DNA of 64,000 nt from a bacterium (lineage in GTDB: Bacteria; Auribacterota; Tritonobacteria; UBA1439), in assembly GCA_028716845.1 (NCBI GenBank), contig JAQUPF010000001.1:216167-280166 (forward strand), written 5' to 3'. Each line of letters begins with the position of its first letter. The first letter of the stretch is position 1. The notes below the pieces were generated by a model. It did not search any database and had not been told where the DNA came from. It saw only the letters and a program-made list of their open reading frames with translations. The translations under genes and the position numbers were made by a program. Below are positions 6,779 to 62,930 of this stretch, piece after piece.

Positions 6779-8299
6779 TCATCGCAGGCGGTAGAGGGCG
6801 TACGTGTGGCGGATCTCCGGGGATTCGTACAGGGCGATGCGCTCATGCCCGGCCAGGAAATCCGAGACCACGGCGTCGTATTCCCCGCCGATATCGGTGA
6901 ACGCGACGTAGCGGAGCCCCTCCCTTTCCCTGAGCCGGCGCATCCTGTCCACGGCCGCCCTCCCCGCGGCGCCGTCTTTCCCCAGCCTCCCCTTCCACCA
7001 GCCGTAGCGGCGGGAGTAGTAGAGCACCTCCGGCCCCCAGCAGTCCGTGAAGAGCAGCTCTCCCTCGGGCACGCTCCTTCCGACCGTCCCCAGGAAATGC
7101 CACAGGTGCCAGTTCACGGGGTAGAAGCGCGCGAGCACCTCCCCGGCGGCGGCGCGGAGGGAGAGGCCGACGACGAGGGCGATCACCGCCCCCCTGCAGA
7201 GCGCGGATCCGCGGAAACGCGGGATCAGTGAGACGCAGGCGTCGAGGCCGCGGGCGAACATGAGGGCGAGCGGCGGGACGAAGGCGAGGAAGTAGTACTC
7301 GTGGAGGACGACGAAGAACGGGTACGAGTCCACCGCCGCGTAGAGAAACGCGGCGGCGAGCCACGCGAGGAACAGGCGGGCCCCCGATCCCTTTTCGCGC
7401 ATGAGGCAGGCGACGCCGGCCGCCGCGAAGAGCACGCCGAGGGGCGACAGCGAACAGCGGCCGAGGAAGACGGCGAGCGCCCCGAAGAACCGCCGGTCGA
7501 CCCACTGCACGTAATAGGCCGGCGACGACCAGTTCCTGAACGTGGCCACGCCGGGCGCGAATGTCTTCGGCAACTGGCCCGCGTTGAGCACGTGCATGTG
7601 GTAGAGGAACCATGCGGCGACCGCGACCGCCACGATGCCGCCGAGCGCCCAGAGCCGCGGCGCCAGGAACCCCCTGGGGCCCCGCCTCCCCGTAAGGTAG
7701 ACGGCCATCGGGATCACCAGGTACGCGTTCGGCGGATTGACCGCGAGGGCGAGCGCGCCGGCCGCCGCGGCCCACGCCATGCTCCGGCGGTCGCCCCTGT
7801 CGACGAACTCGGTGAACCAGTACAGCATCCCGACGGCGAGGAACATCGAGAAGCCCCCCTGCCGCATGAAGCACCGGCTGTAGAAGACGAAGAGCGGGCA
7901 GAGCGAGAAGAGGAGCGCCGAGAGGAGGCTCAGGCGGGCGGGGAAGAACTTCCTCGACAGTTGGAAAAAGAGGATGACCGCCCACAGGGCGAAGAGGATG
8001 CCCACGATCCTCCCCCATATCTCATTCACCCCCGTGAGGTGATAGAAGAGGGCGACGATGTAGGAGTAGAGGGGGAATTCCGGCAGGTTGGTCGTGCCCC
8101 CCCTCCCTGAGACGGTCTTCGGCAGGAGGAGGGAGTTCCGCTCCACGTAGTAGAGCCAGGACTGCATCGCCGTGAGGGTCTGGCGGTATGAATGGTTGTC
8201 AAGGAGCGGGGCGCGGAGGTGGTAGAGCCGTGGCAGGAGGCCGGCGACGAGGACGCCGCAGAGGAGCCACTTCTCGACCGAGCGGGGGACCGTCACCAC
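6779..8299 (-). CDS. GT-C superfamily membrane glycosyltransferase (ArnT/PMT-like), paralog 1
   Basis: Track ORF 506 aa; many TM segments, size and topology like ArnT/protein-mannosyltransferase-type enzymes; first 37 aa identical to paralog at 13107..14636. Confidence 0.7.
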   Translation of the reverse strand: MVTVPRSVEKWLLCGVLVAGLLPRLYHLRAPLLDNHSYRQTLTAMQSWLYYVERNSLLLPKTVSGRGGTTNLPEFPLYSYIVALFYHLTGVNEIWGRIVGILFALWAVILFFQLSRKFFPARLSLLSALLFSLCPLFVFYSRCFMRQGGFSMFLAVGMLYWFTEFVDRGDRRSMAWAAAAGALALAVNPPNAYLVIPMAVYLTGRRGPRGFLAPRLWALGGIVAVAVAAWFLYHMHVLNAGQLPKTFAPGVATFRNWSSPAYYVQWVDRRFFGALAVFLGRCSLSPLGVLFAAAGVACLMREKGSGARLFLAWLAAAFLYAAVDSYPFFVVLHEYYFLAFVPPLALMFARGLDACVSLIPRFRGSALCRGAVIALVVGLSLRAAAGEVLARFYPVNWHLWHFLGTVGRSVPEGELLFTDCWGPEVLYYSRRYGWWKGRLGKDGAAGRAAVDRMRRLREREGLRYVAFTDIGGEYDAVVSDFLAGHERIALYESPEIRHTYALYRLR

Positions 8300-8333
8300 G
8301 ATTCCTTCCTGCGGAGATTGTCCCGCGGGACCG

Positions 8334-9269
8334 CTATGAGAACAGGCCTATCCTCTCCTCGACGATATACGGGGGCCTGTTCTTCCCCTGGATGAACATC
8401 CGCCCGAGGTACTCGCCGATGATCCCCATGCAGAAGAGCTGGACGCCGCCGAGCAGCGTGATGAGGGCGGCGAGCGTCGCCCACCCCAGCACGGGCACCC
8501 CGCTGGTGACCTTCTGCACCATCACGACGGCGAAGTAGAGGATGCTCAGGGCCGCGACGACGAGGCCGGCGACCGAAATGAGCTTCAGGGGCTTCACGGA
8601 GAAGGAGAGGAGGGAGTCGAGGGCGAAGCCGAGCTGGCGCGCGAACGGGTATTTCGTGGTCCCGCGCCCCCTCCTGCCGGAGGCGACCGGGACCCTGGAG
8701 GTCGGGAAGTTGATGAGCCCAATGATGAACGTGATGCTGGGGTCGCGCTCGGAGAAACGGAGCAGCTCGTCGATCGTCCGCCTGCTGATGATCCTGAAGA
8801 GACTGGTCGTGAATTCGATCCTGTGGTCCGAGAGCGCGGCGATGAGCCGGACGAACGCGCGGGAGCACAGATTACGGAACCAGGTCTCGTTCTTCCGCTC
8901 CTTGACGCCGTAGACGACGTCGTACCCCTTCCGCATCTCGGCGTGGAGGGCGGCTATGTCCTCGGGGCGGTCCTGGAGGTCCCCGTCCATGATCACCGCG
9001 GCCCGGCCCGCCGCCTCCCGGAGCCCCGCCAGTATCGCGGCGTGATGCCCGAACCGGTTGGAGAGCTTGAGCGCCTTGAACCGCCGGTCCCGCGCGACGA
9101 GCTCACGGAGGCGGGGCACGGTCTCGTCGCTGTTGATGTCGGTGACGAAGATCACCTCCCATTCGCCCGCGAGACCCTCCAGGGCGCGGGTGAGCCGCGC
9201 GGAGAGCTCGGGGATGTTCTCCGCCTCGTCCCGGACCGGGATCACCACCGAGAGCTCCGCCATGGTCAT
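8334..9269 (-). CDS. Polyprenyl-phosphate sugar glycosyltransferase, GT2 family (ArnC/DPM1-like)
   Basis: C-terminal 311 aa of track ORF 8334..9860; start MTMAELSVVIPVRDEAENI; DGDLQD motif; two C-terminal TM helices; ATGA overlap with upstream acetyltransferase stop. Confidence 0.8.
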   Translation of the reverse strand: MTMAELSVVIPVRDEAENIPELSARLTRALEGLAGEWEVIFVTDINSDETVPRLRELVARDRRFKALKLSNRFGHHAAILAGLREAAGRAAVIMDGDLQDRPEDIAALHAEMRKGYDVVYGVKERKNETWFRNLCSRAFVRLIAALSDHRIEFTTSLFRIISRRTIDELLRFSERDPSITFIIGLINFPTSRVPVASGRRGRGTTKYPFARQLGFALDSLLSFSVKPLKLISVAGLVVAALSILYFAVVMVQKVTSGVPVLGWATLAALITLLGGVQLFCMGIIGEYLGRMFIQGKNRPPYIVEERIGLFS

Positions 9270-11058: not shown

Positions 11059-12042
11059 TCAAACCTCGTACCGGTCGGGACGGTACCGATGTCGGTTCTC
11101 CCTGATCCAGTCGATCGTCTCGCGGAGCCCGGCCTCGAGATCGTAGCGCGGCTCCCACCCGGTCGCCGCCTTCAGCCGGCGGTTGTCGGCCCTGAGCCGT
11201 TCCACCTCCCCCTCCTCCGGCCGCACCCGCGCCGGGGCGAGGACGATCCGCGCCTCCGCCCCCATGAGACGGGCGATCATGCGGGCGAGGTCCCCGACGG
11301 AGATCTCCTCGTCCATCCCGATGTGGACCGCCTCGCCGATAAAGCCGGGCGCGTCATGCGCCGCCAGGAAGCCGTCCACGGTGTCCCGCACGAACGTCAG
11401 GTCCCTCGTCGGCGCGAGGTTCCCCAGCCGGATCTCCCGCGCCCCCGCGAGGAGCTGGATGATGATCGAGGGGATCACGGCGCGCGCCGACTGCCGCGGC
11501 CCGTACGTGTTGAACGGCCGGACGATCTTCACCGGCAGGCCGAACGATCGGTGATAGCTCAGGGCGAGCTGGTCCGCGGCGACCTTGGTGGCGGCGTACG
11601 GCGAACGGGCGTCCGGCGGCTGCCCCTCTCCGATCGGGACCGTCCGGACGTTCCCGTACGTCTCGCTGGTCGAGGTCACGAGCACCTCCCCCGTCCCGCA
11701 CTCGAGGGCCGCCTGCAGGACGTTGTAGGTCCCCTCGACGTTCGTCCGCACGTAGGCCAGCGGCGAGACGTACGAGTACGGGATCCCGATGAGCGCGGCG
11801 AGGTGGAACACGGCGCCGCAGCCGCGCGCCGCCCGCAGCACGGCGTCGTAGTCGCGGATGTCGCCCGCGACCACCTCCAGTTCATTCCGGCAGGGGACGT
11901 CGTCGAGCCAGCCCCACGAGCCGCCGCCGACGTACCGCACGAAGGCGCGGACGCGCATCCCCATCGCCACGCACCGCTCCACGAGGTGCGAGCCGATGAA
12001 GCCCCCGGCCCCCGTGATGAGGACCATCCCGTCGGCGCTCAT
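11059..12042 (-). CDS. NAD-dependent nucleotide-sugar epimerase/dehydratase (SDR family)
   Basis: Track ORF; TGAGGFIGSHL Rossmann motif and Y-x3-K (SPYAATKVAADQL). Confidence 0.8.
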   Translation of the reverse strand: MSADGMVLITGAGGFIGSHLVERCVAMGMRVRAFVRYVGGGSWGWLDDVPCRNELEVVAGDIRDYDAVLRAARGCGAVFHLAALIGIPYSYVSPLAYVRTNVEGTYNVLQAALECGTGEVLVTSTSETYGNVRTVPIGEGQPPDARSPYAATKVAADQLALSYHRSFGLPVKIVRPFNTYGPRQSARAVIPSIIIQLLAGAREIRLGNLAPTRDLTFVRDTVDGFLAAHDAPGFIGEAVHIGMDEEISVGDLARMIARLMGAEARIVLAPARVRPEEGEVERLRADNRRLKAATGWEPRYDLEAGLRETIDWIRENRHRYRPDRYEV

Positions 12043-12737
12043 GGCTCCTCGAAGTGCGTCTTCACGATCTCGTGCGCCCTCTCGTAGTCGCTGACCCGTC
12101 CGATGTCAAGCCAGTACTCCGCGAGCTCGTACTTCATGACGGGCATCTCCCGCTCGAGCATGGTCCTGATCAGCGCGTCCATGCCGAAGTAGGTCCCGTC
12201 CGGGATGAGATCGAGTATGCCGGGCTTCATGACGTAGATGCCCGCGATGATCCAGGTGATGATCTCCGGCTTCTCCTGGATCCCCGTCACGCGGTCCCCG
12301 GAGAAGAAGATGTTGCCGAAGGCGAACGGGAGAATCTCCTTCTTGATGGCGATGGTGAGGAGCGAGTCCGCGGAGAGGCCGAACGCGTACAGCTTCCCGA
12401 AATCGGCCAGGGTGAGGATGTCGCCGTTCATCAGGATGAACGGCTCTGCGAGGCGGTCCCGGAGGAGCGAGAGAGGCCCCGCCGTCCCCAGCGGGACATC
12501 CTCCCTGCTCACGCTGAGCCTGACCCCGTACCGCGAGCCGTCCCCGAAGAACTTCTCGATGTAGTCGGACTTGTAGTTGGTGGTGAGGATGATCTCATCG
12601 AACCCGAATTTCCTGAGGCGATCGATCTGAATCTCGAGGACCGATTTCTCCCCCACCGGAAGGAGGGGCTTGGGGATGACCGAGGTGAACGGTTTGAGGC
12701 GCGTGCCGAGGCCCCCCGCGAGAATGATCGCCTTCAT
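12039..12737 (-). CDS. Sugar-phosphate nucleotidyltransferase
   Basis: C-terminal 232 aa of track ORF 12039..13049; start MKAIILAGGLGTRLKPFT (G-x-G-T-R-L motif); GGAGGGGAG RBS before ATG 12737; 4-bp overlap with epimerase start. Confidence 0.75.
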   Translation of the reverse strand: MKAIILAGGLGTRLKPFTSVIPKPLLPVGEKSVLEIQIDRLRKFGFDEIILTTNYKSDYIEKFFGDGSRYGVRLSVSREDVPLGTAGPLSLLRDRLAEPFILMNGDILTLADFGKLYAFGLSADSLLTIAIKKEILPFAFGNIFFSGDRVTGIQEKPEIITWIIAGIYVMKPGILDLIPDGTYFGMDALIRTMLEREMPVMKYELAEYWLDIGRVSDYERAHEIVKTHFEEP

Positions 12738-12750
12738 CTCCCCTCCGTGT

Positions 12751-12808
12751 CCGTGGCAGATTATATCGTGCCGGCTCCCGCGGAGGCGAGCGGAAATCCG
12801 CCCGCGGC
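12751..12808 (-). promoter_or_regulatory. Conserved promoter/operator-like element, copy 1 (imperfect palindrome + 15 nt + TATAAT)
   Basis: Blocks CCGTGGCAGATTATAT and GGAGGCGAGCGGAAATCCGCCCGCGGC shared with 14719..14776; on the coding (minus) strand a TATAAT hexamer lies about 20 nt upstream of the nucleotidyltransferase ATG. Confidence 0.35.
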
Positions 12809-12822
12809 ACGGGGCCGCCCGA

Positions 12823-13083
12823 TCACTTGAGGAGGAGGAGCCGGACATCCCTGACGCCGAGCTCGTCCCCGGAGCAGGGAAGTTTGCCGGCGAATCCCTC
12901 CGGCACCTTTCTCCTGGTGTCCCGAGTGGCGGAGATGTCCTTCTTCGGGAATGGCGAGGACTCGACCAGTTCCACGATCCCGCGTATGCCGAGACGGTTG
13001 ATGGCCGGGCTGTGGCAGATGGCGTCCACCTCCCGCCTCGCCACCTCATCCTCCGGGCCTTTGGACTTCAGCATGTCTTCCAT
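12823..13083 (-). CDS. 86-aa stand-alone paralog of the C-terminal domain of the methyltransferase at 17803..18978
   Basis: Track ORF; MEDMLKSKGPEDEV...NRLGIRGIVELVESSPFPKKDISATRDT...LLLLK aligns with the last about 86 aa of the 452-aa ORF (roughly 60% identical by eye). Confidence 0.4.
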   Translation of the reverse strand: MEDMLKSKGPEDEVARREVDAICHSPAINRLGIRGIVELVESSPFPKKDISATRDTRRKVPEGFAGKLPCSGDELGVRDVRLLLLK

Positions 13084-13106
13084 TTCCGCATCGGTGAGGA
13101 ACGGCG

Positions 13107-14636
13107 TCAGCGCTCCTTCAACCTGTACAGGGCGTAGTAGATTACGGGCTGCTCGTTCGTTTCCAGCCGGTGGAGCAGCTCGTGCGACGCGAGGTAGTCC
13201 GCTATCAGATTGTCGTAGGGGTAACCCGCGTGGGCCACCATGACGTACCCCAGCCCTTTCGCCGCGCGCAATTCCTCCATCTGCCGCACGACCTCCCCGC
13301 CCCTCGCGTCATCGAGATCGCCCCTGTACCGCCACCAGCCGTACCGGTAGGTGTAGTAGAGGGCCTCCGGCCCCGAGCAAGCCGTGTAGACGAGGGCGTC
13401 CTCGGGAATGCGATCTCTCGCTTCCATCACGAAGGCGTAGAGATTCCAATTGACGCGGTAGAAGACAGGGCGGGTGTCCCTCCAGGCGGGAAGGAAGAAC
13501 AGGCAGGAGAAGGCGCCCAGGACGGCGAGGCGAAACCACCGGACGCCCCGGAACCGCGGCGACAGCGAACAGCACCGATAGACGCCCAGGGCCGCGCAGA
13601 ACGCCAGCGGGGGGGCAAAAACAAGGTAGTAATACTCGTGGGGGCAGATGAAGAACGGATAGCTGTCCAGGACCGCGTCGATGCATGCCGCGGCGAGCCA
13701 TGCGAGGAACAGGCGCGAACCCGCGCTCCTGTCCCGCAGGAGAAACAGAAGCCCCCCGGCAGCGAAGAACACACCCCACGCCGAGAGCATGTAATCGGAG
13801 ATGTGCCGATGGAGGCTGCGGAAGAACGCCGGGTCGATCCACTGGGTGTAGTACGCGAGGGAGGACCAGTCCCGCATCTTCGAGTCCCGCATGAAAAAGG
13901 TGTGGGAGAGAACCCCGCCGCTCAGATAGTGCGCCTGGTAGCACATCCACGCCGCGCTCAGGCAGGCCACGATCGCTCCCAGCACCCAGAGTCGCCACTG
14001 CTTCAATGCGCTCCTCCCGTCCCGGCGGAACAGGTAGCATCCCATGGGGAGGAAGACATAGCCGCTGGGCGGGTGCACGGTGATGCCGAGCGTCGCGGCG
14101 GCGGCGGCCAGCAGCATGCTCTTCGTGGAACGCGTGTCCACGAACTCGACGAAGTAGTAGAGCATCGCGACCGTGAGGAAGGTCGACATCCCTCCCTGCC
14201 GGGTGAAGCTCCGGCTGTAGAAAATGAAAAGGGGGCACAGGGCGAACAGGAGGGAGGCGAAGAGGGAGAGGTCCTCGTCGAAGAACCTCCTCGTCAGACG
14301 GTAGAACCAGAACACGGCGGCAAGGGAGAAGACGATGCTGACGACCCTCCCCCAGATCTCGTCGAATCCGAAGGCCCGGTAGAGGAGGGCCACGAGGTAA
14401 CTGTAGATCGGGAACTCCGGCAGATCGGAGACGCCGCTTCTCCCGGCCATGGTCTTGGGATGGAAGAGGGACGTGCCCTCCCTATAGTAAATGGAGGACT
14501 GCATGGCGGTGAGCGTCTGCCGGAAGGAGTGGTTGTCGAGAAGCGGGGCGCGGAGGTGGTAGAGCCGTGGCAGGAGGCCGGCGACGAGGACGCCGCAGAG
14601 GAGCCACTTCTCGATCGAGCGGGGGAGCGTCACCAC
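13107..14636 (-). CDS. GT-C superfamily membrane glycosyltransferase (ArnT/PMT-like), paralog 2
   Basis: Track ORF 509 aa; same architecture as 6779..8299 with a near-identical 5' end. Confidence 0.7.
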   Translation of the reverse strand: MVTLPRSIEKWLLCGVLVAGLLPRLYHLRAPLLDNHSFRQTLTAMQSSIYYREGTSLFHPKTMAGRSGVSDLPEFPIYSYLVALLYRAFGFDEIWGRVVSIVFSLAAVFWFYRLTRRFFDEDLSLFASLLFALCPLFIFYSRSFTRQGGMSTFLTVAMLYYFVEFVDTRSTKSMLLAAAAATLGITVHPPSGYVFLPMGCYLFRRDGRSALKQWRLWVLGAIVACLSAAWMCYQAHYLSGGVLSHTFFMRDSKMRDWSSLAYYTQWIDPAFFRSLHRHISDYMLSAWGVFFAAGGLLFLLRDRSAGSRLFLAWLAAACIDAVLDSYPFFICPHEYYYLVFAPPLAFCAALGVYRCCSLSPRFRGVRWFRLAVLGAFSCLFFLPAWRDTRPVFYRVNWNLYAFVMEARDRIPEDALVYTACSGPEALYYTYRYGWWRYRGDLDDARGGEVVRQMEELRAAKGLGYVMVAHAGYPYDNLIADYLASHELLHRLETNEQPVIYYALYRLKER

Positions 14637-14703
14637 GATTCCTTCCCGCCCCGGCTTCCCCGCTGCTCGGTCATGAGAATCGGCCTCTCACCGTTGTGGG
14701 GGC

Positions 14704-16107
14704 TTAGTCCTCCCCGGCCCGTGGCAGATTATATATTGCAGGTTTCGAAGGAGGCGAGCGGAAATCCGCCCGCGGCGCCTTCCCGGGGGTTCCCGCGATC
14801 AGCATGAGGAAGCAGCACATCGGGAGCATCCAGACGACGCGCGCGCCGTATCGGTCATCCACGATGGAGAGCGAACTGCAGACGGCGTCGTTCGCCGCGA
14901 CGGCGCAGAGCGAGAAGAGAAGCAGGAAGACGAAGCGGCGGTCGCGGCGGATGCGGGGCAGCCGCATCCCCGCGCCGAGCGCCGCGAGCGAGGCGCACAG
15001 AGCCGCGGCGTGGACGGCGCCGAGGCGGCCGAGGCCGAGCGTTCCCCGCTGCTGCCTCGACCCGGCAAAGGCCTCGAAGCCGCGGGGGTATCTCCTGCGC
15101 AGCACCTTGTAGGCCCACTGGTCCGGCCGTATCGGCGACGTCGCGGCCAAGGCGTTGAACCGGCCGAACTGCCTGAAGGAATCCTTCGCGCAATCGGCCG
15201 CCCACGCGCGCGGGTAGGCCCGGATCGTCGCCCACGCCAGGCGCCTGTACTCGTCGTGGGACGCGTTCCACCCCCCGCCGAGCTGAAAGGGGCTGCGCGG
15301 GTCCCACAGGAAGTAGCCGGCGGGCCCGCGGATCTCTCCCCTTTCCCGGCATAGCTCGTACTCCTCCTCGCCGCAGTGCTCGTCGAGGAACCGCCGCAGC
15401 ATCCCCTTCTCCCAGAGGCGGGCGGTCATGAAGATATGCGAGGACCGCAGCGGTGAGAATCCCGCCCCGAGGCGCCAGTTGAGCGCGGAGAGGAAGACGC
15501 ACGAGGCGCCGACGAGGCACGCGGCGAGCGCGATGCGCCGCGCGGATGTCAGGGGGGCGACCCGCGACGCGAGACACGCGAGACACGCCGCCGCCACGAG
15601 GACCGCGCCGATGAGAAGGTGCGAGGCGTGCGCCGCCGCGGAGAAGACGAACAGCGCCGCGCATGCCGCGGTCGCCGCTCCGCGACGCCCGCCCGGCAGC
15701 AGGAGGAGGAGCAGGCAGAGCATGAAGACGGGAGTGAGCGCGTCTGCGAAGACGGTGCTCTGGACGAGTGGGGCGGTCGTCAGGAGGCCCAGGACCGCGC
15801 AGAGCGCGACCGTCATGGCGTCGTGGCGACGCGCCGTCAGCCGGCAGACGAGCGCGCGGAGCAGGCAGGCAAGGATGCACGCCTGCGCGAGCACCACGGG
15901 CCACAGCGACCGCCCGAGGCCCGCGGCCCTGATGAAGATGCTGTAGCCGATGGTGCGGTCAGGAGGAACGCGGAGCGTGAACGAGCTCTCGACGTAGGTG
16001 CCGGTGTCGGTATACACGAGAGGGTATCCGTTAAAAAATGCCGGCCACGAGAGCAGGAGCGTCCCGAGCAGCACCGAAAGAATGACCTGAACCCGGGGTC
16101 GGATCAC
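14704..16107 (-). CDS. Polytopic integral membrane protein, function unknown (possible glycosyltransferase)
   Basis: Track ORF 467 aa; GTG start preceded by AAGGAG; many hydrophobic segments; last about 25 codons are encoded by the conserved element at 14719..14776. Confidence 0.55.
   Translation of the reverse strand: MIRPRVQVILSVLLGTLLLSWPAFFNGYPLVYTDTGTYVESSFTLRVPPDRTIGYSIFIRAAGLGRSLWPVVLAQACILACLLRALVCRLTARRHDAMTVALCAVLGLLTTAPLVQSTVFADALTPVFMLCLLLLLLPGGRRGAATAACAALFVFSAAAHASHLLIGAVLVAAACLACLASRVAPLTSARRIALAACLVGASCVFLSALNWRLGAGFSPLRSSHIFMTARLWEKGMLRRFLDEHCGEEEYELCRERGEIRGPAGYFLWDPRSPFQLGGGWNASHDEYRRLAWATIRAYPRAWAADCAKDSFRQFGRFNALAATSPIRPDQWAYKVLRRRYPRGFEAFAGSRQQRGTLGLGRLGAVHAAALCASLAALGAGMRLPRIRRDRRFVFLLLFSLCAVAANDAVCSSLSIVDDRYGARVVWMLPMCCFLMLIAGTPGKAPRADFRSPPSKPAIYNLPRAGED
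14719..14776 (-). promoter_or_regulatory. Conserved promoter/operator-like element, copy 2
   Basis: Same two conserved blocks as 12751..12808 with a different 15-nt spacer; about 80 nt upstream of the PMT-like paralog 2 start, overlapping the 3' end of ORF 14704..16107. Confidence 0.35.
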
Positions 16108-16214: not shown

Positions 16215-17783
16215 CTATGGGGGGGACCCCGGACAATCACCGCGGAGTCGGAAGAGGCGGTACTCGCCGACGCGCTTCTCCCCATACCGCTCCGCGAGAT
16301 GGGCGAGCAGTTCATCGTCGGCGAGATCCCGGCCTGATGTCCCCGTCGCGTAGAGGACGATGCGCCGGCCCCCCGCTTCGGCGAGCGCACGGTCGAAATC
16401 CTCGCGCGTCCGGACGTTGCGGATCAAGTCCCGGTCGGCGTAGTACCTGAATTCCGGCCTCCCATAGAACGATATGACGGTTGTCTCGTCGGGGGCGGTC
16501 ATTGACCCGATGATCCCGCCGAGGCGGTGGCCGTCGTGGAACCGGAGCGCGGCGCGCTCCCGCTCCAGCCCGCGCAGCCCCGAGGCGCCGTGGAGGACGA
16601 GAACTGCCGCGATGAAGAGGGCGCCGAGCGGCCGTGAGAGCCGTGAGAGCGGTTCATACAGCCGCGCCGCCCCGACCGCGGCGAGCAGGGCGAATGACGG
16701 CGTCACGTTGAACAGGACGTACGTGTGGATGTAGGCGGCGTTCGTGAAGACGGCCGGGTGGAGCCAGCCGAGGACGAGGAGATTCAAGGCGACGACCCGC
16801 GCCTCCCGGCTGCCGCCCCGGCGGGCGAAGAGGACGGCGGCGCCGATCCCCGCGAGGATGATGGCCGGCCAGCCGAGGAGTGTCTCGAGGTACGACCGGA
16901 GGCGCAGGGCGTACTCCCGCATCGTGAACGCGTAGGCGGGGGGGGCGCCGATGTTCAAACGGAACAGGAGCGTCTTCATCCAGGCGCCGCCGAACACGCT
17001 CCCGGTCACGGACCTGACCGCCAGGAGAAAGAGGGCGATTCCCGCCGCCCCCGCCGCCAGGTAGTACCTGAGAACCGGGCGCTCTTTTCGATCAGGCCGT
17101 GGACGGGCGATCTCCTCCACCGCGATAAGAACGAGCGCGTAGTAGCCCGTCCATTCCGTCGCGATCGCGAGTACGAAGGCGATCACGCTCAGCGCCGGGA
17201 GGCGCCGCTGCGGCGCGGCCCGCCATGACCGGTAGGAGGCGTATGACATGAGGATGAAGAAGAGGACCATGGAGCCGAAGACCTCGACCTGGGGGCCGTA
17301 GAACAGGTCCATGGTCATGAACGCCGCGAAGCAGACGCCGAGGAGGGCGGCGCCGGGCCCGAGGACCGGCCGCAGGATGAGAAAGAGCAGCATGAGATTC
17401 CCGGCAGAAAAGAGGATGGGGATGGCCCTCGCGGCGGCCTCCGACTCCCCGAGGATTGCGAAGACGCCCGCCGTCACCACGGGGAGGAGCGGCGGATGGT
17501 GGAGGTAGAATGATCGTGGGGGGGCGTGGCCCCCGGCGTCACGAGCCATCACGAAGCGCGTCGCCCGGAAGCCGTAGCGGAGGTGGTTCCGGGCGACATG
17601 GCTGTAGACCGCGCCGTTCCAGCCGTGGTGGCCGCCCGCCCATCTGTCAGTGAGCCCCCAGCAGCGGAGGGCGATGCCCGCCGCGACGATGGCGAGGCAG
17701 AGCGCAACCGGTCCGGATACGGCCCGTTTCACGGCCTTACATCCTGCAGCGCGTGCTCCGCGCACACTGTCCCTCCCCGACAA
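16215..17783 (-). CDS. GT-C-like polytopic membrane glycosyltransferase (ArnT/PMT_2-type topology)
   Basis: Track ORF 522 aa; N-terminal multi-TM domain followed by a soluble C-terminal domain, the layout of GT-C enzymes; no close motif match verified. Confidence 0.55.
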   Translation of the reverse strand: MSGRDSVRGARAAGCKAVKRAVSGPVALCLAIVAAGIALRCWGLTDRWAGGHHGWNGAVYSHVARNHLRYGFRATRFVMARDAGGHAPPRSFYLHHPPLLPVVTAGVFAILGESEAAARAIPILFSAGNLMLLFLILRPVLGPGAALLGVCFAAFMTMDLFYGPQVEVFGSMVLFFILMSYASYRSWRAAPQRRLPALSVIAFVLAIATEWTGYYALVLIAVEEIARPRPDRKERPVLRYYLAAGAAGIALFLLAVRSVTGSVFGGAWMKTLLFRLNIGAPPAYAFTMREYALRLRSYLETLLGWPAIILAGIGAAVLFARRGGSREARVVALNLLVLGWLHPAVFTNAAYIHTYVLFNVTPSFALLAAVGAARLYEPLSRLSRPLGALFIAAVLVLHGASGLRGLERERAALRFHDGHRLGGIIGSMTAPDETTVISFYGRPEFRYYADRDLIRNVRTREDFDRALAEAGGRRIVLYATGTSGRDLADDELLAHLAERYGEKRVGEYRLFRLRGDCPGSPP

Positions 17784-17802
17784 CCCCGGCGCGTCCGGCC
17801 AA

Positions 17803-18978
17803 TCACTTCACGAGGAGCAACTCGACGTCCCTGATGCTGAGATCATCTTCCGAATAGGGGAGCTTCCCCCTGAATTCCTCCGGCACCTCTCTCTTGGTAT
17901 CGCGCGTAAAGGATATGTCCTTCCTCCTGAAGGGCGAGGCCTCGACAATCTGCACGATCTCGCGTATCCCGAGGCGGTTGATGATCGTGCTGCGGTAGAT
18001 GAATTCCACCGCCCGCCTCACCACTTCATCCTCAAGCCCCTTGGACCTCAGCAGGTTCTCCATCTCGGCCTCGGAGTAACGCAGGTGGCCGAAAGGCGGG
18101 ATGTGCGGTGTCGCGCCGTGCCGATCCGTCACGTGGTAATGGTGCCCCACGGCGCTGCTCCAGATGGGGCCGAACGAGGCGTAGAGCCGCCCGCCAGGCT
18201 TCAACACCCGGTGGATCTCGGAGAGGACCCGCCCGAGATCGAGGCAGTGCTCAAAGACGTTGAACGAATACGCCCCGTCGAAGGTATCGTCGTCGAACCC
18301 GAGCGACGAGGCGTCCATCATGACGTACGAATACCGCCGGTGCATGGAGAGGTAGCACTTCGAGAAGTAGTCAATGTCGATGCCGACGATCCTCCTCGGC
18401 CCCGCTCGCAGCAGCTGCCACGCGACGGCGCCGTTCCCGCTGCCGATCTCCAGGATCGTCCTCCCGCGAACCGTCATCCTCCCCGTCAGATCGCGGACGA
18501 ATCGCGCGTTGTACGGCTTGCCGATGAAGTCGTCGTACTCCCCGATGATGTCCGGGAACACCGGCGGGGAGAGCAATCCCCTCCCCGCGAGCCATGCCCT
18601 TGCCCTCTGGAACACACCCGGCGTGATCCGCACCCCCTTCGCGACAAGCGGCCGTGGATTCAATCTGTGCAGATCGGTCCTTCTGAACAGCGTCATTTCC
18701 ATGTCATAGACGCCGGGCGCGATCGTGAAGCTCTTGATGACCTCCACGGGCACGCCGGGCCTCCACGTGTCCGTCCGCGGCCGAATGACGAAGCCGATAT
18801 ACGCGTGCCGTTTCCCGGCAGGGCGGGCACCCGGCGGTTGACCGTTCGCGCGGACAAGCTTGATGCCGAGGGAATATTCACCATCGATCGGCCGCGACGG
18901 GAGAAATTTCAGGCGGATCAGCGCATGCCTTCCGAGGAAGGATACCCGCAGGCCGATGAGTTCGACCGGATCGCTCAT
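17803..18978 (-). CDS. Class I SAM-dependent methyltransferase with extra N- and C-terminal domains
   Basis: Track ORF 17803..19161; ATG at 18978 (MSDPVELIG); motif I LEIGSGNGAVA and LKPGGRLY; C-terminal 86 aa duplicated at 12823..13083. Confidence 0.7.
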   Translation of the reverse strand: MSDPVELIGLRVSFLGRHALIRLKFLPSRPIDGEYSLGIKLVRANGQPPGARPAGKRHAYIGFVIRPRTDTWRPGVPVEVIKSFTIAPGVYDMEMTLFRRTDLHRLNPRPLVAKGVRITPGVFQRARAWLAGRGLLSPPVFPDIIGEYDDFIGKPYNARFVRDLTGRMTVRGRTILEIGSGNGAVAWQLLRAGPRRIVGIDIDYFSKCYLSMHRRYSYVMMDASSLGFDDDTFDGAYSFNVFEHCLDLGRVLSEIHRVLKPGGRLYASFGPIWSSAVGHHYHVTDRHGATPHIPPFGHLRYSEAEMENLLRSKGLEDEVVRRAVEFIYRSTIINRLGIREIVQIVEASPFRRKDISFTRDTKREVPEEFRGKLPYSEDDLSIRDVELLLVK

Positions 18979-19180
18979 CGCCCTGTTCTTCCGCGCGGAA
19001 GTGGAAACGGTTCGATGGTTTGCATCGCTGCGATGGCAATCGCCCCTGCGACGGTGATGGACCTTTCCCCGCAGGAAGCCGGTGTATTCATGATCACGGG
19101 AGAGGCGGCGGCGGTTCCTGTTGGACAGGCGCGGGCTTGTATCTATTGAACCGCACTGCATACGCGATTCGACGCCAAAC

Positions 19181-21226
19181 TCATGGCTTCTTCTCCTGCG
19201 GGAGGAAATCGTGACGGGAGCCCAGCCGGAGGTTGACCAGTGGGTTGACCGCCTCCCAGCGGGGCCCCGGGCGGGGGCGGCGCGCGCCGCCGTAGAGGGA
19301 GGGGTGGTTGCGCTTCATGATCTCCATGAGCTCCGCGTGGCGCTCGATCGCGCGCGCGTCGCGCGTGACGCCGTGCCGGCGGTAGTGGAAGAGCGGCGCG
19401 GGGATGACCTCGCCCCTCCCCCCCGCCTCCGCGACGGAGAGCCAGAAATCCCAGTCCTCGTTGCCGCCCGCCATGTTCGGGTTGAAGCCGCCCACCCGCC
19501 GCCAGATCTCCTTCGTGAAGACCGCCGCCGTCGGGACGCAGTTCCGCCGCGTGAGCGTCCCGATCTCGAACGGCTCCGTCCCCCATTCGCGATCCTCGTC
19601 GCCGAATATCTTCACCCAGGAGTAGCTGATGTCGAGCCGCCGCGCCTCCATGGCGGCGACGCACTTCTTGAGGTAGGCCGGCATGATGCGGTCGTCGGCG
19701 TCGAGGCAGCAGATGTATTTTCCCCACGCCGCGGCGATCGCGTTGTTCCGCGCCCTGCTCACGCCCTGGTTCTCCTGCCGGCGGACCATCAGGTTCGGGA
19801 TGCCGCGGCGCTCGATCTCCGCGAGCTTCTCCACCGTGAACGGGTCGTCGGAGCCGTCGTCGACGATGATGATCTCGATGTTCCGCAGCGTCTGGCCGAG
19901 GGCGCTCTCGAGCGCCTCGTCCAGGAAACGGCCGTAGTTGTGGCAGGGGATGACGACGGTGACGAGCGGCGCCTCCCACGGCTCCAGCCGGAAGAGGCGC
20001 GGGAGGCCGGTGCCGAAGAGCCGCCGGGCCGCGTTCACAACCGGGATGGGGAGCCGCCGCTTCACACGGTCGGGGGCGAGCCGCGCCGCGAGGCGGTACG
20101 GGAACCGGTACAGACCCCGCCGCAGCAGATCCCCCTCCGGGACGAGGAGCAGCCGCCGGGCGACGCGCTTGAAGCGGCGCGGACAGAGGACGTCGATCAC
20201 GCGGAACGGGAGGAGGACGAGCCCCTTCAGCGAGTGGCGCGCGGCGCAGATTGCGCAGGCGAGCGGCCAGGGCCTCGACGACTTGATGCCGCGGAGCTCG
20301 TCCGAGGCGAGGTTGAGCCGGTGCTGCGCGTCGCCGAGCCGGCGCTCGAGCGTGGCGCGTTCCCTCTCGGCCTCCCGCGAGCGTGCCTCGAGGCCGGCGA
20401 CCCGCCGCTCGAGGTCCTCGATCCGGCGCTTCGCCGCCTCGTGGTGGCCGGTCAGCCGCCGCAGCGACTCCTCCCCCGTCTTCCAGTAGTGGCGATACCG
20501 CGCGATGAGGTCGTCCTTGGCGATGAGGACCTCCGGGAAGCGGCGCCGGTAGCTCTCGAGGTGCTTCTCGATGATCCTCCGCCGGAGCCGGCTCGACACC
20601 TCGGGCCTGTCCGCCCCGCGGACCATCGAGTCCTTCCGCACGCGGTACCGGAAGAGGAACTCCGGGATGAGGGCGACCCTGTAGCCCGCCTCGAGGACGC
20701 CGATCCAGAAGTCCCAGTCCTCGTACCCCGGCAGCGTCTCGTCGTAGCCCCCGGCCTTCTCCCACGCCTCCCGCCTGAACGGCGAGGAGCCGCACGCCCT
20801 GTTGGTGACGAGGAAGTCCGCCAGTTCCGTCCCCCGATCCCGCTCCTCCGCCTCCTTCTCGCCGAAGATCCGGTACCAGAACGTCGCCACGCCGACCTCG
20901 GGGCGGGAATCGAGGAGCGCCGCGCACCTCCCGAGGCAGTCCGGCTCGAGGATGTCGTCGGCGTCGAGGCAGCAGATGTACCCGCCGCCCGAGTTCCCGA
21001 TGCCGAGGTTCCGCGCGGCGGAGAGTCCCCGGTTGGGCGAGCGGATGACGCGCGTCTTCGGCCACGGGCAGGCCGAGAGGAGGCGCCCGGTGTCCCCGTC
21101 GGTCGAGCCGTCGTCCACGACGACGATCTCGAAGTCCCGCATCGTCTGCGCGAGGACGGAGTCCACCGCCTCGCCCAGGTACCGGCCGAGGTTGAAGCAG
21201 GGGATGATCACGCTGACTTTCGGCAT
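19181..21226 (-). CDS. Tandem two-domain GT2 glycosyltransferase with coiled-coil linker
   Basis: Track ORF 681 aa; two GT2 cores (VSVIIPCFNLGRYL...DADD and VTVVIPCHNYGRFL...DADD) separated by a Glu/Arg-rich heptad-like segment (EDLERRVAGLEARSREAERERATLERRL). Confidence 0.8.
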   Translation of the reverse strand: MPKVSVIIPCFNLGRYLGEAVDSVLAQTMRDFEIVVVDDGSTDGDTGRLLSACPWPKTRVIRSPNRGLSAARNLGIGNSGGGYICCLDADDILEPDCLGRCAALLDSRPEVGVATFWYRIFGEKEAEERDRGTELADFLVTNRACGSSPFRREAWEKAGGYDETLPGYEDWDFWIGVLEAGYRVALIPEFLFRYRVRKDSMVRGADRPEVSSRLRRRIIEKHLESYRRRFPEVLIAKDDLIARYRHYWKTGEESLRRLTGHHEAAKRRIEDLERRVAGLEARSREAERERATLERRLGDAQHRLNLASDELRGIKSSRPWPLACAICAARHSLKGLVLLPFRVIDVLCPRRFKRVARRLLLVPEGDLLRRGLYRFPYRLAARLAPDRVKRRLPIPVVNAARRLFGTGLPRLFRLEPWEAPLVTVVIPCHNYGRFLDEALESALGQTLRNIEIIIVDDGSDDPFTVEKLAEIERRGIPNLMVRRQENQGVSRARNNAIAAAWGKYICCLDADDRIMPAYLKKCVAAMEARRLDISYSWVKIFGDEDREWGTEPFEIGTLTRRNCVPTAAVFTKEIWRRVGGFNPNMAGGNEDWDFWLSVAEAGGRGEVIPAPLFHYRRHGVTRDARAIERHAELMEIMKRNHPSLYGGARRPRPGPRWEAVNPLVNLRLGSRHDFLPQEKKP

Positions 21227-21290
21227 CTCTCTTTCAGCTCGTCGTTCGTACTTCGTACATCGTACATCGCAAACAGAGGTTAATCCACAC
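21098..21290. repeat. About 190-bp duplicated segment spanning GT2 5' coding end, RBS and upstream hairpin, copy 1
   Basis: Near-identical to 22161..22353 (a few mismatches over about 190 bp, constant offset 1063). Confidence 0.7.
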
Positions 21291-21305
21291 AGTACGATGT
21301 ACGAA

Positions 21306-22289
21306 TCAGCGCCGGAACGGCAATGAAAAGACCGACTTCACCGCGCGCCACGCCCGCTGGACGGCGGAGCCGACCTTCCAGGCCTTGGAGGCGTACACCG
21401 ACCGGAGTTCGTGCTCGCGCTCATCGAGCAGGCGGCGGAGCTCGCCGGGCTCGCCCCTGTTCAGCGCGGTCTCCAGCTCCCGTATGTAGCGGTGCGCGTC
21501 GTCGTGGTGCCCCAGCAGCCAATCGAGCTCCTCCTCCCGGTGCCGCCAGTAGAGGCGGTACTCGCCGAGCAGCCGGTCCTTGCCGCGGATGACCTCGAGG
21601 GCGTGCTCCCGGAACGACGCGGCGTGCCTGGCGATGATCCGGTCCATGATCTCGCCCCGGTACTCGGGGCTGTTGCTCCGGTGGTGCTTCCCCCCCTCCC
21701 TGATCCTGTACCGGAAGAGGAACTCCTCCAGGACGTGCGCGCGGTACCCCCGCTCGAGGATGCCGATCCAGAAGTCCCAGTCCTCGTACCCCGGCAGCGT
21801 CTCGTCGTATCCCCCCACCTCCTCCCACGCCTTCCGCCTGAACAGCGAGGCGGTGCAGGCGCGGTTGTCGACGAGGAAATCGGCGAGCGTCGCGGAGTCC
21901 GGGTCGACCGTGCCGGGCTTGTCGCCGAAGAAGGTGTACCAGAACGTCACGATCCCCACGCCCGGGTCTCCGTTCATGACGGCGCCCGTCTTCTCGAGGC
22001 ACGCCGGCTCGAGGAGGTCGTCCGGGTCGAGGCAGCAGACGTACTCGCCGGAGGACAGCGAGATGCCGTGGTTCCTCGCCGCCCCCGCCCGCTTCCGCTC
22101 CGTGGCGACGACCCTCGTCTTCGGCCGCCGGTAGTCCGCGAGGAGGGCGTTGGTCTCCTCGTCGGTCGAGCCGGGATTCACGACGATGATCTCGAAGTCC
22201 CGCATCGTCTGCGCGAGGACGGAGCCCACCGCCTCGTCCAGGTACCGGCCGAGGTTGAAGCAGGGGATGATCACGCTGACTTTGGGCAT
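21306..22289 (-). CDS. GT2 family glycosyltransferase, paralog of the N-terminal domain of 19181..21226
   Basis: Track ORF 21306..22358; ATG at 22289 gives MPKVSVIIPCFNLGRYLDEAV..., nearly identical over the first about 60 aa to the downstream tandem GT2. Confidence 0.8.
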   Translation of the reverse strand: MPKVSVIIPCFNLGRYLDEAVGSVLAQTMRDFEIIVVNPGSTDEETNALLADYRRPKTRVVATERKRAGAARNHGISLSSGEYVCCLDPDDLLEPACLEKTGAVMNGDPGVGIVTFWYTFFGDKPGTVDPDSATLADFLVDNRACTASLFRRKAWEEVGGYDETLPGYEDWDFWIGILERGYRAHVLEEFLFRYRIREGGKHHRSNSPEYRGEIMDRIIARHAASFREHALEVIRGKDRLLGEYRLYWRHREEELDWLLGHHDDAHRYIRELETALNRGEPGELRRLLDEREHELRSVYASKAWKVGSAVQRAWRAVKSVFSLPFRR

Positions 22290-22353
22290 CTCTCTTTCAG
22301 CTCGTCGTTCGTACTTCGTACATCGTACATCGCAAACAGAGGTTAATCCACAC
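22161..22353. repeat. About 190-bp duplicated segment, copy 2
   Basis: See 21098..21290. Confidence 0.7.
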
Positions 22354-22403
22354 CGCACCCAGAACGAAGTACGAAGTACGATGTACGATGTACGAAGTAC
22401 GAA
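22308..22403 (-). promoter_or_regulatory. Perfect 25-bp inverted repeat (GTAC-rich) with 46-nt loop in the leader of the GT2 gene
   Basis: Arm TTCGTACTTCGTACATCGTACATCG (22308..22332) is the exact reverse complement of 22379..22403; a shorter 14-bp version precedes the next GT2 gene (about 21253..21305). Confidence 0.5.
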
Positions 22404-31379: not shown

Positions 31380-31489
31380 GTAGTTCGCCTGCATGGATGG
31401 ATCCTCCCGGCGCGTCTTTCCCGATTATAGCATCCGAGGGGATCGGCAGCTCGTCGTCCGCATCCCGCGGAGCCGCCGCGCACAATGCA

Positions 31490-31800
31490 CCCCGAACCGC
31501 GGATCTCCACGGATCATTGACGGATTGTCACGGATTGGATTGCAGTAGATACAGGGTTCCGGCCGCGGATTGACGCAGATACAACCGGCCACAGAGGACA
31601 CAGAGAACGCAGAGGATAGTGCCGCTTTCGGCTTTGAACGTTCAACTTTGAACTGTAGTTGTCCTCTGTGCTCTCTGTGGCTGACACATTGTTCCTTCCA
31701 CTCCACGCTCCCGCTTCCGACTCCGGACTGAAGTCGGATCCGCGATAATCCGCGTCGATCCGCGGCAAGAACATTATCCATTCGCGCTGATCTGCGCGGA
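31490..31800. repeat. Mosaic intergenic repeat element, copy a
   Basis: Contains module X (about 31563..31662, forward) and module Y (about 31496..31560, reverse) shared with other copies; lower GC than flanking genes. Confidence 0.7.
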
Positions 31801-42099: not shown

Positions 42100-42490
42100 A
42101 TCATCCGAATCAGCCCGGCAACAAGAACAAATCCACCACGGATTGGCGCGGATCCAACTACAGTTCAAAGTTAAAAGTTCAAAGCCGAAAGCAGCACTAT
42201 CCTCTGCGTTCTCTGTGTCCTCTGTGGCCGGTTGTATCTGCGTTAATCGGCGGCCGGAACCCTGTATCTACTGCAATCCAATCCGTGACAATCCGTCAAT
42301 GATCCGTGGAGATCCGCGGCTCGTGGTTCATCGTTCCGCTGCGTCTCGCGCGATGGACGAAGGACGAACGACGAACTGCGTGTACAGAATCCGCGCGAAT
42401 TTGCGGCAAACAAGGTCCTCCGTGTTCTCTGTGTGCTCTGCGGCGAACCAGAACCGTGAAGATCCGCGGTTGATTGTGGCTTGATATATG
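42100..42490. repeat. Mosaic intergenic repeat element, copy c
   Basis: Module X reverse (about 42155..42250), module Y forward (about 42279..42378), terminal module ending about 15 nt from the recR stop. Confidence 0.7.
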
Positions 42491-47080: not shown

Positions 47081-47400
47081 CCCGCGACCGACCGCCCTTC
47101 CCTGAAGACACGACGCGCCAAGCCACCGCCGCCTATATCAAGCACCAATCAACCACGGATTGGCACGGATCCAAACGACAGTGGAAAGTTGAAGGCATAA
47201 CGCCGAACGTAAAGTCGTTTCCGCCGCGGATGAACGTGAACAGCAGCTCGCTCTTTTCGCCACGGAGATCACAGAGAACAACTCCAGTGCGAAGTTGAAC
47301 GTTCAAAGTCGAAAGCAGCACTATCCTCTGCGTTCTCTGTGTCCTCTGTGGCCGGTTGTATCTGCGTCAATCCGCGGCAAGGCAGTTCATTTCATCGACG
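47081..47400. repeat. Mosaic intergenic repeat element, copy d (begins with 90-bp direct repeat DR1)
   Basis: DR1 47081..47170 is about 91% identical to 47918..48007; module X reverse at about 47291..47380. Confidence 0.7.
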
Positions 47401-47487: not shown

Positions 47488-47928
47488 ATGCCGGATCTCG
47501 TCACGCACCTCTGCGCCGCCCAGGTCATCCGGCGCCTCCTCCGGCTCCGCCTCTTCCCCCTCTTCGCCCTCGGCGCCGTCCTCCCGGACCTCCTCTCGCG
47601 GCCGGCGCACATCCTCTTCCCCGGCACCGCCCCGTTCGTCGTCGCGTTCCACTCGCCCGTCGTGCTCCTCCTCTGCTGCCTCCTCGCGAGCCTCCTGTTC
47701 GCGCGGCCGATACGGCGCGCCTGCCTCGGGTACCTCGCGGCCGGCTCGGCGCTCCACCTCGCCCTCGACGTCATGCAGAAGCAGATCTGCCCGGTCTACT
47801 ACTACTGGCTCTTCCCCTTCTCGCGCTGGACGTGGGACGCCGACCTGTTCTGGCCGGAGCAGGCCCTCCTCCTCCTCCCGGTCACCATCGCCGTCACCGC
47901 GCTCGTGACGGTCCTCACCCGCGACTGA
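47488..47928 (+). CDS. Inner-membrane protein, YdjM/DUF457-like putative metal-dependent hydrolase
   Basis: Part of track ORF 47356..47928; ATG 47488 with GGGGGAGAG RBS; MPDLVTHL start and four hydrophobic helices; family assignment tentative. Confidence 0.55.
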   Translation: MPDLVTHLCAAQVIRRLLRLRLFPLFALGAVLPDLLSRPAHILFPGTAPFVVAFHSPVVLLLCCLLASLLFARPIRRACLGYLAAGSALHLALDVMQKQICPVYYYWLFPFSRWTWDADLFWPEQALLLLPVTIAVTALVTVLTRD

Positions 47929-48175
47929 CCGCCCTTCCCTGAAGACGCGACGCACCAATCCACCGCCGCATATATCAAGCACCAATCGACCACGGATCGG
48001 CACGGATTACGACGGATGAGCACGGATCCATACCACAGCCGGGAGCGGCGGTGTTCTTGCCGCGGATTGACGCAGATACAACCGGCCACAGAGGACACAG
48101 AGAACGCAGAGGATAGTGCTGCTTTCGACTTTGAACGTTTAACTGTAGTTGGGATCCGTGATCATCCGCGGCGGC
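47918..48175. repeat. Mosaic intergenic repeat element, copy e (begins with DR2 overlapping the stop codon of the preceding gene)
   Basis: DR2 47918..48007; module X forward at about 48059..48150. Confidence 0.7.
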
Positions 48176-49519: not shown

Positions 49520-49810
49520 TCCGCGGCCACAAAGCGCAAACTCGACAACGCACACTCGACACGCACCGATCCGCCACGGACCGGCGCGGATCCAAACGAC
49601 AGCGGAAATTTGAACGCATAAAGCCGAACGTGAGGCCGTTTCCCACGTTGAACTTTTCGCTTTGAACGTTCAACTGTGGTTGGGATCCGTGACAATCCGT
49701 CAATGATCCGCGGAGATCCGCGGCTCGTGGTTCATCGTTCCGCTGCGGCTCGCGCGATGGACGAAGGACGAACGACGAACTTCGTTGACAGAATCCGTGG
49801 CAGGGAGTTC
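49520..49810. repeat. Mosaic intergenic repeat element, copy f
   Basis: Module Y forward (about 49689..49788, about 100 bp with 2 mismatches to copy c) plus AACGTTCAA-type inverted repeats. Confidence 0.7.
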
Positions 49811-62599: not shown

Positions 62600-62930
62600 G
62601 AACAATAATGCACTCCACCCTGCGGATCGGCGCGGATCCCGACAACAGTTGAACGTTCAAGGCGAAACGTTCAAAGCGGGAAACGGCGGAAACCCTGTTC
62701 CTTTCGGCCGCCTTCTCATCCGCGTGGATCCGCGTGCATCCAAGGTTGAAAGTGGAAAGCAGGCAAATGCCTTGCCGCCACAGAGATCACAGAGACCACA
62801 GAGGAATCGGAGAGTCCATCTTGTTCAATCCGCGATAATCCGCGTGGATCCGCGGCGAACACCATCCTCCGTGTTCTCTGAGTGCTCTGTGGCGGACTGC
62901 AACCGTGCCGATCCGTGGTGGATTGATGCT
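62600..62930. repeat. Mosaic intergenic repeat element, copy g
   Basis: Shares ATCCGCGATAATCCGCGT-GGATCCGCGGC, AACGTTCAA and CACAGAG-type modules and the terminal CCACGGATCGGCACGG module with other copies. Confidence 0.65.

Follow-up and report, generated by a model that had tools for sequence, protein, structure and literature searches.

Remnants of wzy genes and a partial wzy duplication have been documented in the O-antigen clusters of Salmonella (PMC3715488). The small open reading frame described here (small ORF) lies in the window, that is, in the whole 64-kb stretch of bacterial DNA that was analysed. It resembles the remnants in surface-polysaccharide clusters (PMC3715488) in that a truncated piece of a gene is found between intact, co-oriented glycosylation genes, beside duplicated segments and short repeats, apparently as a leftover from the replacement or insertion of a neighbouring gene block. 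It differs from the Salmonella O-antigen remnants in two respects. No IS or H-repeat is visible at its junction, which is flanked instead by a 58-nt hairpin repeat of uncharacterised type, and the small ORF keeps an uninterrupted ATG frame and is annotated as a protein.

The second point of comparison is a family of class I SAM-dependent methyltransferases (MTs) of about 300 aa (P0003-P0019). The small ORF is homologous to the last 86–91 residues of these enzymes and keeps the INRL and SPF motifs and the VRDV.LLL.K strand. Unlike the members of this family, however, it is without the N-terminal 230 residues, and the conserved W/F, Y, D/E, E and A residues are replaced.

The small ORF and its counterpart in the methyltransferase gene

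The features on which the following description depends are listed below in the order of their coordinates in the window.

6779-8299, minus strand: PMT3, closely paralogous to PMT2; the PMT2 segment probably derives from it or is its sister
12039-12737, minus strand: NTP-transferase gene, 232 aa, with its ATG at 12737; first gene of a conserved module
12751-12808, minus strand: D4b, a 58-nt repeat element between the small ORF and the NTP-transferase gene
12810-13094, minus strand: copy B of the duplicated DNA (repeat D1), reaching from about 11 nt 5′ of the ATG of the small ORF to some 13 nt beyond its stop codon
12823-13083, minus strand: the small ORF, 86 codons plus stop, probably the 3′ remnant of an MT gene copy
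13107-14636, minus strand: PMT2, a GT-C/PMT_2-family membrane glycosyltransferase (Pfam; 54% amino-acid identity to PMT3)
14637-14725, minus strand: ArnC′ scrap, a decayed copy of the 3′ end of an ArnC-like GT2 gene plus spacer, with its source at 8300 to about 8390, upstream of PMT3
14719-14776, minus strand: D4a, the other 58-nt element, preceding the ArnC′ remnant and PMT2
17790-18074, minus strand: copy A of the duplicated DNA, the 3′ end of the intact MT gene plus 13 nt downstream
17803-18753, minus strand: MT gene, 316 aa, class I SAM-dependent (Methyltransf_11/23/25), assigned from Pfam, its SD sequence, the 316-aa NCBI product, AlphaFold2 and Foldseek

In the ORF listing, the small ORF starts with ATG and encodes 86 aa on the minus strand. 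An earlier note on this DNA had proposed that it corresponds to approximately the last 86 residues of a 452-aa ORF (17803-19161), with its Met matching an internal Met of the longer protein, and both statements were confirmed by BLASTP. Residues 1–86 align without gaps to residues 367–452 of the 452-aa ORF, with 56 of 86 identities (65%), 69 positives and an E value of 3e-34, which is far beyond chance, and Met1 aligns to Met367. The position given there, between the PMT_2-family gene at 13107-14636 and the NTP_transferase gene, is likewise correct. In tblastn the match of the small-ORF protein to the MT grows to 91 residues (13098-12826), beginning five codons before the ATG. At the DNA level, the repeat search and the alignment gave 285 nt shared by copies A and B at 75% identity with no indels. 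The 86-aa product has no match in Pfam, methyltransferase families included, and the public annotation carries it as an 83-aa ‘hypothetical protein PHN82_01125’ starting from Met4 (P0001).

Gene callers report frameshift-split or truncated ORFs as small ‘hypothetical proteins’, and the small ORF is like them in being called from an inherited internal Met. Unlike truncation and frameshift artefacts, it is not at an edge of its contig, which is 397 kb long, and no N-terminal half of an MT is found upstream. An exact-protein look-up returned, as the sole match, a 3-kb Logan contig from the same organism in which the small ORF had been assembled independently. The small ORF is a genuine genomic fragment. 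Two ORFs on the opposite strand, 12670-13137 and 12827-13243, were set aside as by-products of the high GC content; the order GC3 > GC1 > GC2 tracks the minus-strand frame inherited from the MT.

The 452 residues ascribed to the MT in the earlier note are those of the maximal ORF, whereas the gene itself is probably 316 aa long and starts at GTG 18753, as indicated by the GGAGG motif before this codon, the NCBI annotation of the MAG (P0002) and the length of 300–310 aa that is typical of the family. In the 452-aa ORF, the Pfam matches to Methyltransf_11/25/23 fall at residues 221–376. With this start, the GT2 gene and the MT would be separated by 427 nt (18754-19180) with no assigned function and a GC content of about 0.62, below that of the flanks. 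The MT family, with members of about 300 aa, is sparsely populated, and the nearest non-self relative of the MT is 36% identical. In the family alignment, conservation extends up to the C-terminus, with the signature NR(L/I)FYEDY...ASPF...YPG...VR.VEVVL.K. Since the position of Met1 of the small ORF is a conserved M/L across the family, its ATG was inherited and not newly evolved.

Place of the duplicated segment in the methyltransferase fold

An AlphaFold2 model of the MT, built on the family alignment, has a pLDDT of 73 and a pTM of 0.72. It shows β1–β5 at residues 99–194, helices at residues 222–272, β6 at residues 277–284 and β7 at residues 307–315. The small ORF corresponds to residues 231–316 of the 316-aa MT and thus to the three helices after β5 together with β6 and β7. 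With the MT model as query, Foldseek returned whole-chain matches to single-domain class I MTs such as 3l8d, RebM 3bus and 3bkw. In the canonical class I MT fold, β6 and β7 are the last two strands of one seven-stranded sheet, and the sheet topology of the segment is read from this canonical fold together with the whole-chain Foldseek matches.

The fragment was also modelled alone, again with the family alignment, as the earlier note had recommended. The same secondary-structure elements are kept, just two strands plus helices, with a pTM of 0.37 and a pLDDT of 68.7, versus block means of pLDDT of 65–97, mostly above 78, for the same region inside the full MT model. The suggestion that the C-terminal region is a discrete module is not supported by these results: in the models, the duplicated segment is predicted to be a fragment of one single class I fold. 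The small ORF aligns only downstream of β5 and has neither the GxGxG loop nor β1–β5, that is, it is without the SAM-binding half. Because β1–β5 and the SAM-binding motifs are missing, its product cannot be a methyltransferase, and it can neither bind SAM nor catalyse methyl transfer. Judging from the model of the fragment alone, the product is probably not a stably folded protein.

Organisation of the surrounding cluster

In minus-strand order, the cluster comprises GT2 genes, the MT, PMT1, a 467-aa membrane protein, D4a, the ArnC′ scrap, PMT2, the MT tail, D4b, the NTP-transferase, an epimerase/dehydratase, a DegT aminotransferase, an acetyltransferase, an ArnC-like GT2 and PMT3. The module of NTP-transferase, epimerase, DegT, acetyltransferase and, in part, ArnC is conserved in metagenomes, with amino-acid identities of 51–68% in the best case (L034). 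The context of the small ORF is a mosaic of the PMT2/PMT3 paralogues, an ArnC-like scrap with indels, the flanking D4 repeat and triplicated GT2 genes, and the cluster is most likely a set of glycosylation genes that has been repeatedly duplicated and reshuffled.

On its upstream side, the MT homology of the small ORF ends no more than about 10 nt from the stop codon of PMT2, so that this stop region appears, on the alignment, to mark the 5′ breakpoint of the MT-derived homology. Further MT-family sequence, beyond the intact MT and the tail, was not found by tblastn in the 64-kb window, nor was a partner MT without the β6–β7 tail found there. Hence the small ORF is truncated relative to all full-length homologues, and the missing part is absent from the locus.

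PMT2 and PMT3 have a dS of 0.91, and their 5′ regions are 73–79% identical in DNA. The 5′ end is less diverged, with a dS of 0.47 versus about 0.9 elsewhere, which may reflect gene conversion. A model in which PMT1 and PMT2 arose by a single duplication was rejected, PMT1 and PMT2 being just about 21% identical. The homology between PMT2 and PMT3 reaches some 70–90 nt upstream of the PMT2 start, and this extension is the ArnC′ scrap. It carries alignment gaps of 10 nt and 7 nt, and the D3 repeat (8043-8342 and 14380-14679), at 79% identity, belongs to the same pair of segments. The scrap overlaps the last codons of the ORF of the 467-aa membrane protein, whose C-terminus is therefore encoded by repeat-derived DNA.

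D4a and D4b are direct repeats of 58–70 nt at 86% identity with an identical core of 27 nt. The element contains a conserved 8-bp hairpin, GCGGGCGG-AUUU-CCGCUCGC, followed by TATAAT, and has neither a canonical -35 box nor a U-tract. It occurs in exactly two copies in the window, which bracket the ArnC′ scrap, PMT2 and the MT tail. A search of Rfam with the region and with the whole window yielded no family for D4 or for anything else. D4 could be a promoter or UTR element, an RNA-stability element or a recombination hotspot.

Several other features of the window were recorded. The GT2 genes are multiplied at 19181-22400, where a two-domain 681-aa gene and a further copy are found; the repeats are spaced by 1063 and 1254–1263 nt and reach 89% identity (21044-21305 versus 22107-22368). 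The GC content is about 0.62–0.65 in 12000-14800 (NTP-transferase, small ORF and PMT2) and in 17600-19200 (MT), and about 0.70–0.72 in the rest of the cluster; the segments of lower GC may be of different origin. Interspersed repeats of 90–180 nt, rich in CACGGAT/ATCCGTG and 92–99% identical, occur in both orientations at 31482-31681, 42155-42481, 47081-47381, 47918-48144, 49635-49797 and 62623-62930. These may be MITE- or REP-like elements and have no Rfam match in the window. At 34720-35626 and 36716-37004 there are tandem coding repeats of 120 nt, about six units, and after them 12-nt repeats rich in Pro/Thr; these probably encode a repeat-domain surface protein with PT linkers.

Transcription and translation signals

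All its neighbours share the orientation of the small ORF, which is separated by 23 nt from the preceding PMT2 stop codon and by 85 nt from the start of the NTP-transferase gene that follows. A consensus scan found no promoter and no terminator adjoining it. Because it is on the same strand, only 23 nt past the PMT2 stop, with no terminator, the small ORF is very probably co-transcribed with its neighbours, as far as can be read from the sequence. An SD sequence is absent at both candidate starts of the small ORF, where the duplex with the anti-SD has energies of -3.5 and -3.7 kcal/mol. The corresponding values for PMT2, PMT3, the 467-aa gene, the epimerase, DegT, the acetyltransferase and the 316-aa MT start are between -6.5 and -11.4, and the NTP-transferase start has a strong SD sequence, GGAGGGGAG.

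Divergence and constraint

A pairwise comparison of the small ORF with the MT tail by the Nei-Gojobori method gave dN = 0.218, dS = 0.617 and omega = 0.35, a value that covers both branches together, the nearest outgroup MT being 36% identical. The 95% bootstrap interval of omega is 0.18–0.66, and values of 1 or more were obtained in 0.02% of the replicates. For PMT2 and PMT3, a full-length pair presumed to be functional, omega is 0.44, and that of the small ORF is not higher. The 63 differences are evenly spread over the 258 aligned coding positions. By codon position they number 17, 18 and 28, with the third position somewhat enriched but the distribution not significantly non-uniform (chi-square about 3.5, 2 df), and the GC3 of the small ORF is maintained at 0.85. 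No indel has occurred over 285 nt at 25% divergence, while the adjacent ArnC′ scrap has two in about 90 nt. The 285 nt thus contain neither stops nor indels that would disrupt the frame.

What does the intact frame tell us about selection? When 20–63 random substitutions were introduced in a neutral simulation, no stop arose in 31–66% of the cases, and as many as 373 stretches in the 64-kb window run for 86 codons or more without a stop. An open frame of 86 codons is therefore uninformative in itself. The value of omega, the absence of indels and the intact, co-oriented frame fit, on the sequence comparison, a second MT copy that had long been part of a complete gene under selection and was truncated recently; the same points would also fit selection on the small product.

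In place of a branch-specific dN/dS, amino-acid polarisation, a swap test on profile scores and counts of the direction of GC changes were used. When the corresponding 86 residues of each copy were scored against a profile of 15 outgroup family members, the MT tail obtained 35.1 bits and the small ORF 19.4 bits, and random exchange of the 30 differing residues attains this gap of 15.7 bits in 2.2% of the trials. The scores of the small ORF against the outgroup profile, 19.4–24.2 bits, have an E value of about 1e-9 for a single comparison and establish its homology to the C-terminal signature. Wherever the copies disagree at a strongly conserved column, the family residue is present in the MT and has been lost from the small copy, the replacements being W/F to A, Y to C, D/E to G, E to R, A to S, I/A to E, and V/L to P. 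Of six aromatic residues in the MT tail, two persist in the small ORF, which has Ala or Cys in place of the other four.

When protein-level selection is lifted in a genome of 70% GC, drift towards GC is expected. At codon positions 1 and 2, the differences from the MT to the small copy are 23 AT-to-GC versus 7 GC-to-AT (P = 0.005), and at position 3 they are symmetric between the copies (11 versus 9). GARP residues amount to 31% in the small ORF versus 23% in the MT tail. By these measures the small copy shows relaxed constraint, as would be seen in a gene remnant, and near-invariant residues of the family have not been retained.

Related sequences in other genomes

Among 5.8 billion proteins, the sole match to the small ORF is the small ORF itself. 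DNA-level scans of species-representative genomes and JGI metagenomes with the small ORF found nothing, and a scan of genome contigs with PMT2 as the query also found nothing, so that no relative of the small ORF was seen beside PMT2 homologues. The search for orthologous loci with the same small ORF that had been advised earlier thus returned none in the protein, genome and metagenome collections searched. Upstream of the NTP-transferase homologues, no MT, PMT or small ORF was found at 80 loci (up to 74% amino-acid identity), which are too distant to inform on adjacency to an MT.

A profile of the family tail was then compared with 1.84 billion representative proteins and matched 326 of them. 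Most of them are MTs of 250–320 aa or longer fusion proteins in which the MT domain ends with the matching segment. About 25 matches are of 130 aa or less, roughly half of which were examined. Many of these ‘proteins’ of 70–130 aa start at the Met conserved in the family. Three begin 55–81 nt from a contig edge and are truncations, and one clusters with a full-length protein of 282 aa. Clusters were looked up for ten short matches; none of the ten is on a contig longer than 3.8 kb, and in eight cases the cluster is a singleton.

One further short match, found on seven contigs, is part of a 302-aa MT that is split by a frameshift in a C7 run. In this other organism, an MT of the same family is divided at 1585-1600 of L004 (also in L005-L009) into ORFs of 214 aa and 88 aa. 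The sequence is identical in the five contigs that were aligned, and the seven that carry the ORF come from several samples. The split could mean that the gene is a fixed pseudogene or that the tract is phase-variable, or it could stem from a sequencing error that recurs systematically.

Among the short matches examined, internal, stand-alone tail ORFs with no MT head upstream are two in number, L003 456-716 and L010 2284-2559. The former sits after an unrelated gene. The latter, within L010 1740-2559, is a 91-aa MT-tail ORF immediately preceded by genes for a BrnT toxin and a putative antitoxin of the BrnA type, an arrangement which suggests that the insertion of a toxin-antitoxin module truncated an MT gene. 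Both fragments look like junction relics comparable to the small ORF, and they do not form a conserved small-protein family. Recurrent conserved homologues with their own starts in several lineages, as a stand-alone small-protein family would have, were not found among the short matches examined.

Origin of the small ORF

We conclude that the small ORF is probably a gene remnant, the 3′ quarter of a second MT copy that was left at a recombination junction. In the history that we prefer, which we infer from the arrangement of the locus, a complete second MT paralogue would once have been located between the two D4 copies, just upstream of the NTP-transferase gene. A single insertion or replacement would then have pasted in a copy of the segment made up of the ArnC-like 3′ end, the spacer and a PMT gene, and the same event would have removed the 5′ three-quarters of the second MT. 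The outcome would be the present order of D4a, ArnC′ scrap, PMT2, MT tail, D4b and NTP-transferase, with the MT tail presumably drifting under relaxed constraint since its truncation. The frame of the tail stays open because it inherited an in-frame Met at a conserved M/L position and because stops are rare in DNA of 70% GC. Should PMT2 have arisen from PMT3 when the truncation took place (dS 0.5–0.9), the event would be an old one, and it would be harder to explain why no indel has occurred.

Of the two possibilities offered in the earlier note, the decayed duplicate is the better supported, in view of the loss of conserved and aromatic residues, the GC drift, the lack of an SD sequence and of relatives, and the scars of duplication. 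The other, an independently expressed small domain, agrees with the intact frame, the dN/dS of 0.35 and the lack of indels, yet has no positive evidence in its favour.

A different history, which seems rather unlikely to us, is that only the 285-nt fragment was duplicated, that a complete second MT was never present, and that the copy has been in neutral decay ever since. Direct repeats of 285 nt could have been left if, for instance, the 4.7-kb block of PMT1, the 467-aa gene and PMT2 had been inserted duplicatively or by a Campbell-type event, and 12810-13094 and 17790-18074 are indeed direct repeats which exactly bracket these three membrane-protein genes. It also agrees with this history that the upstream homology ends sharply at the PMT2 stop and that no further MT-derived sequence is detectable. 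However, the pairwise omega expected for one neutral and one selected branch is about 0.55–0.6 versus the observed 0.35; values of 0.575 or more occur in 6.5% of the bootstraps, and so such a model is not rejected. Indels make up roughly 5–15% of substitutions, a background estimate and not a computed value, and at this rate it would be unlikely to find none after about 30 substitutions on the neutral branch. Moreover, the bracketed block is itself a composite of D4a, the ArnC′ scrap and the PMT2 copy, so that several events would be needed anyway. On account of the omega value, the lack of indels and the composite block, we rate duplication of the fragment alone below the truncation of a complete paralogue.

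Might the small ORF instead be translated, for instance by re-initiation after the PMT2 stop codon 23 nt upstream, and work as a small protein of its own? We consider this improbable, and equally so that its helix and β-hairpin dock on or modulate the MT or another enzyme of the cluster, or have taken on a new function. The intact ATG frame in the same orientation within an operon-like array with no terminator would favour translation, but no SD sequence precedes it. Selection on a product would be in line with the dN/dS of 0.35, the rejection of omega of 1 or more, the lack of indels and a crude outgroup polarisation that gives, by rough arithmetic, an omega of about 0.4 on the small-ORF branch. 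Yet four of the six aromatic residues and all the strongly conserved residues that differ have been lost on this branch, codon positions 1 and 2 drift to GC, and the prediction for the fragment alone is poor (pTM 0.37). The two other internal tail ORFs in unrelated metagenome contigs, L003 and L010, could be taken as parallel cases, but they too look like junction relics; there is no homologous small-protein family, and each short match examined is a singleton or an artefact. Nor does the window hold a truncated MT partner lacking β6–β7.

A more specific form of this idea, in which the tail is translated in coupling to PMT2 and has been kept free of indels at a dN/dS of about 0.35–0.4 as a protein of the cap helices and the β6–β7 hairpin, is slightly more doubtful again. 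If it were true, such a tail protein could complete, cap or poison the sheet of the MT or of another enzyme in the cluster, and a new gene would have been born from a duplicated piece of an enzyme core.

It is highly improbable that the similarity is kept up by ongoing gene conversion from the intact MT, in which case divergence and frame would be silent on selection: the copies do stand in one cluster as direct repeats separated by 5 kb, and the lower dS of PMT2/PMT3 at the 5′ end (0.47 versus about 0.9 for the rest) may point to conversion in another part of that cluster, but the 63 differences are even over the 258 positions, dS is 0.62, and identical runs of about a dozen bases at the longest mean that there is no recent conversion tract.

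Implications

The small ORF is most likely a real but ordinary 3′ gene remnant with an open frame. As such it matters little beyond annotation hygiene, in that an inherited Met and a high GC content make scraps of genes resemble small proteins. It would be of interest as a case of gene birth from a fragment only if expression of its product, and selection on it, were demonstrated. Like the ArnC′ scrap, the D4 element and the PMT and GT2 paralogues, the MT tail is part of the record of how this cluster was assembled by duplication and replacement.
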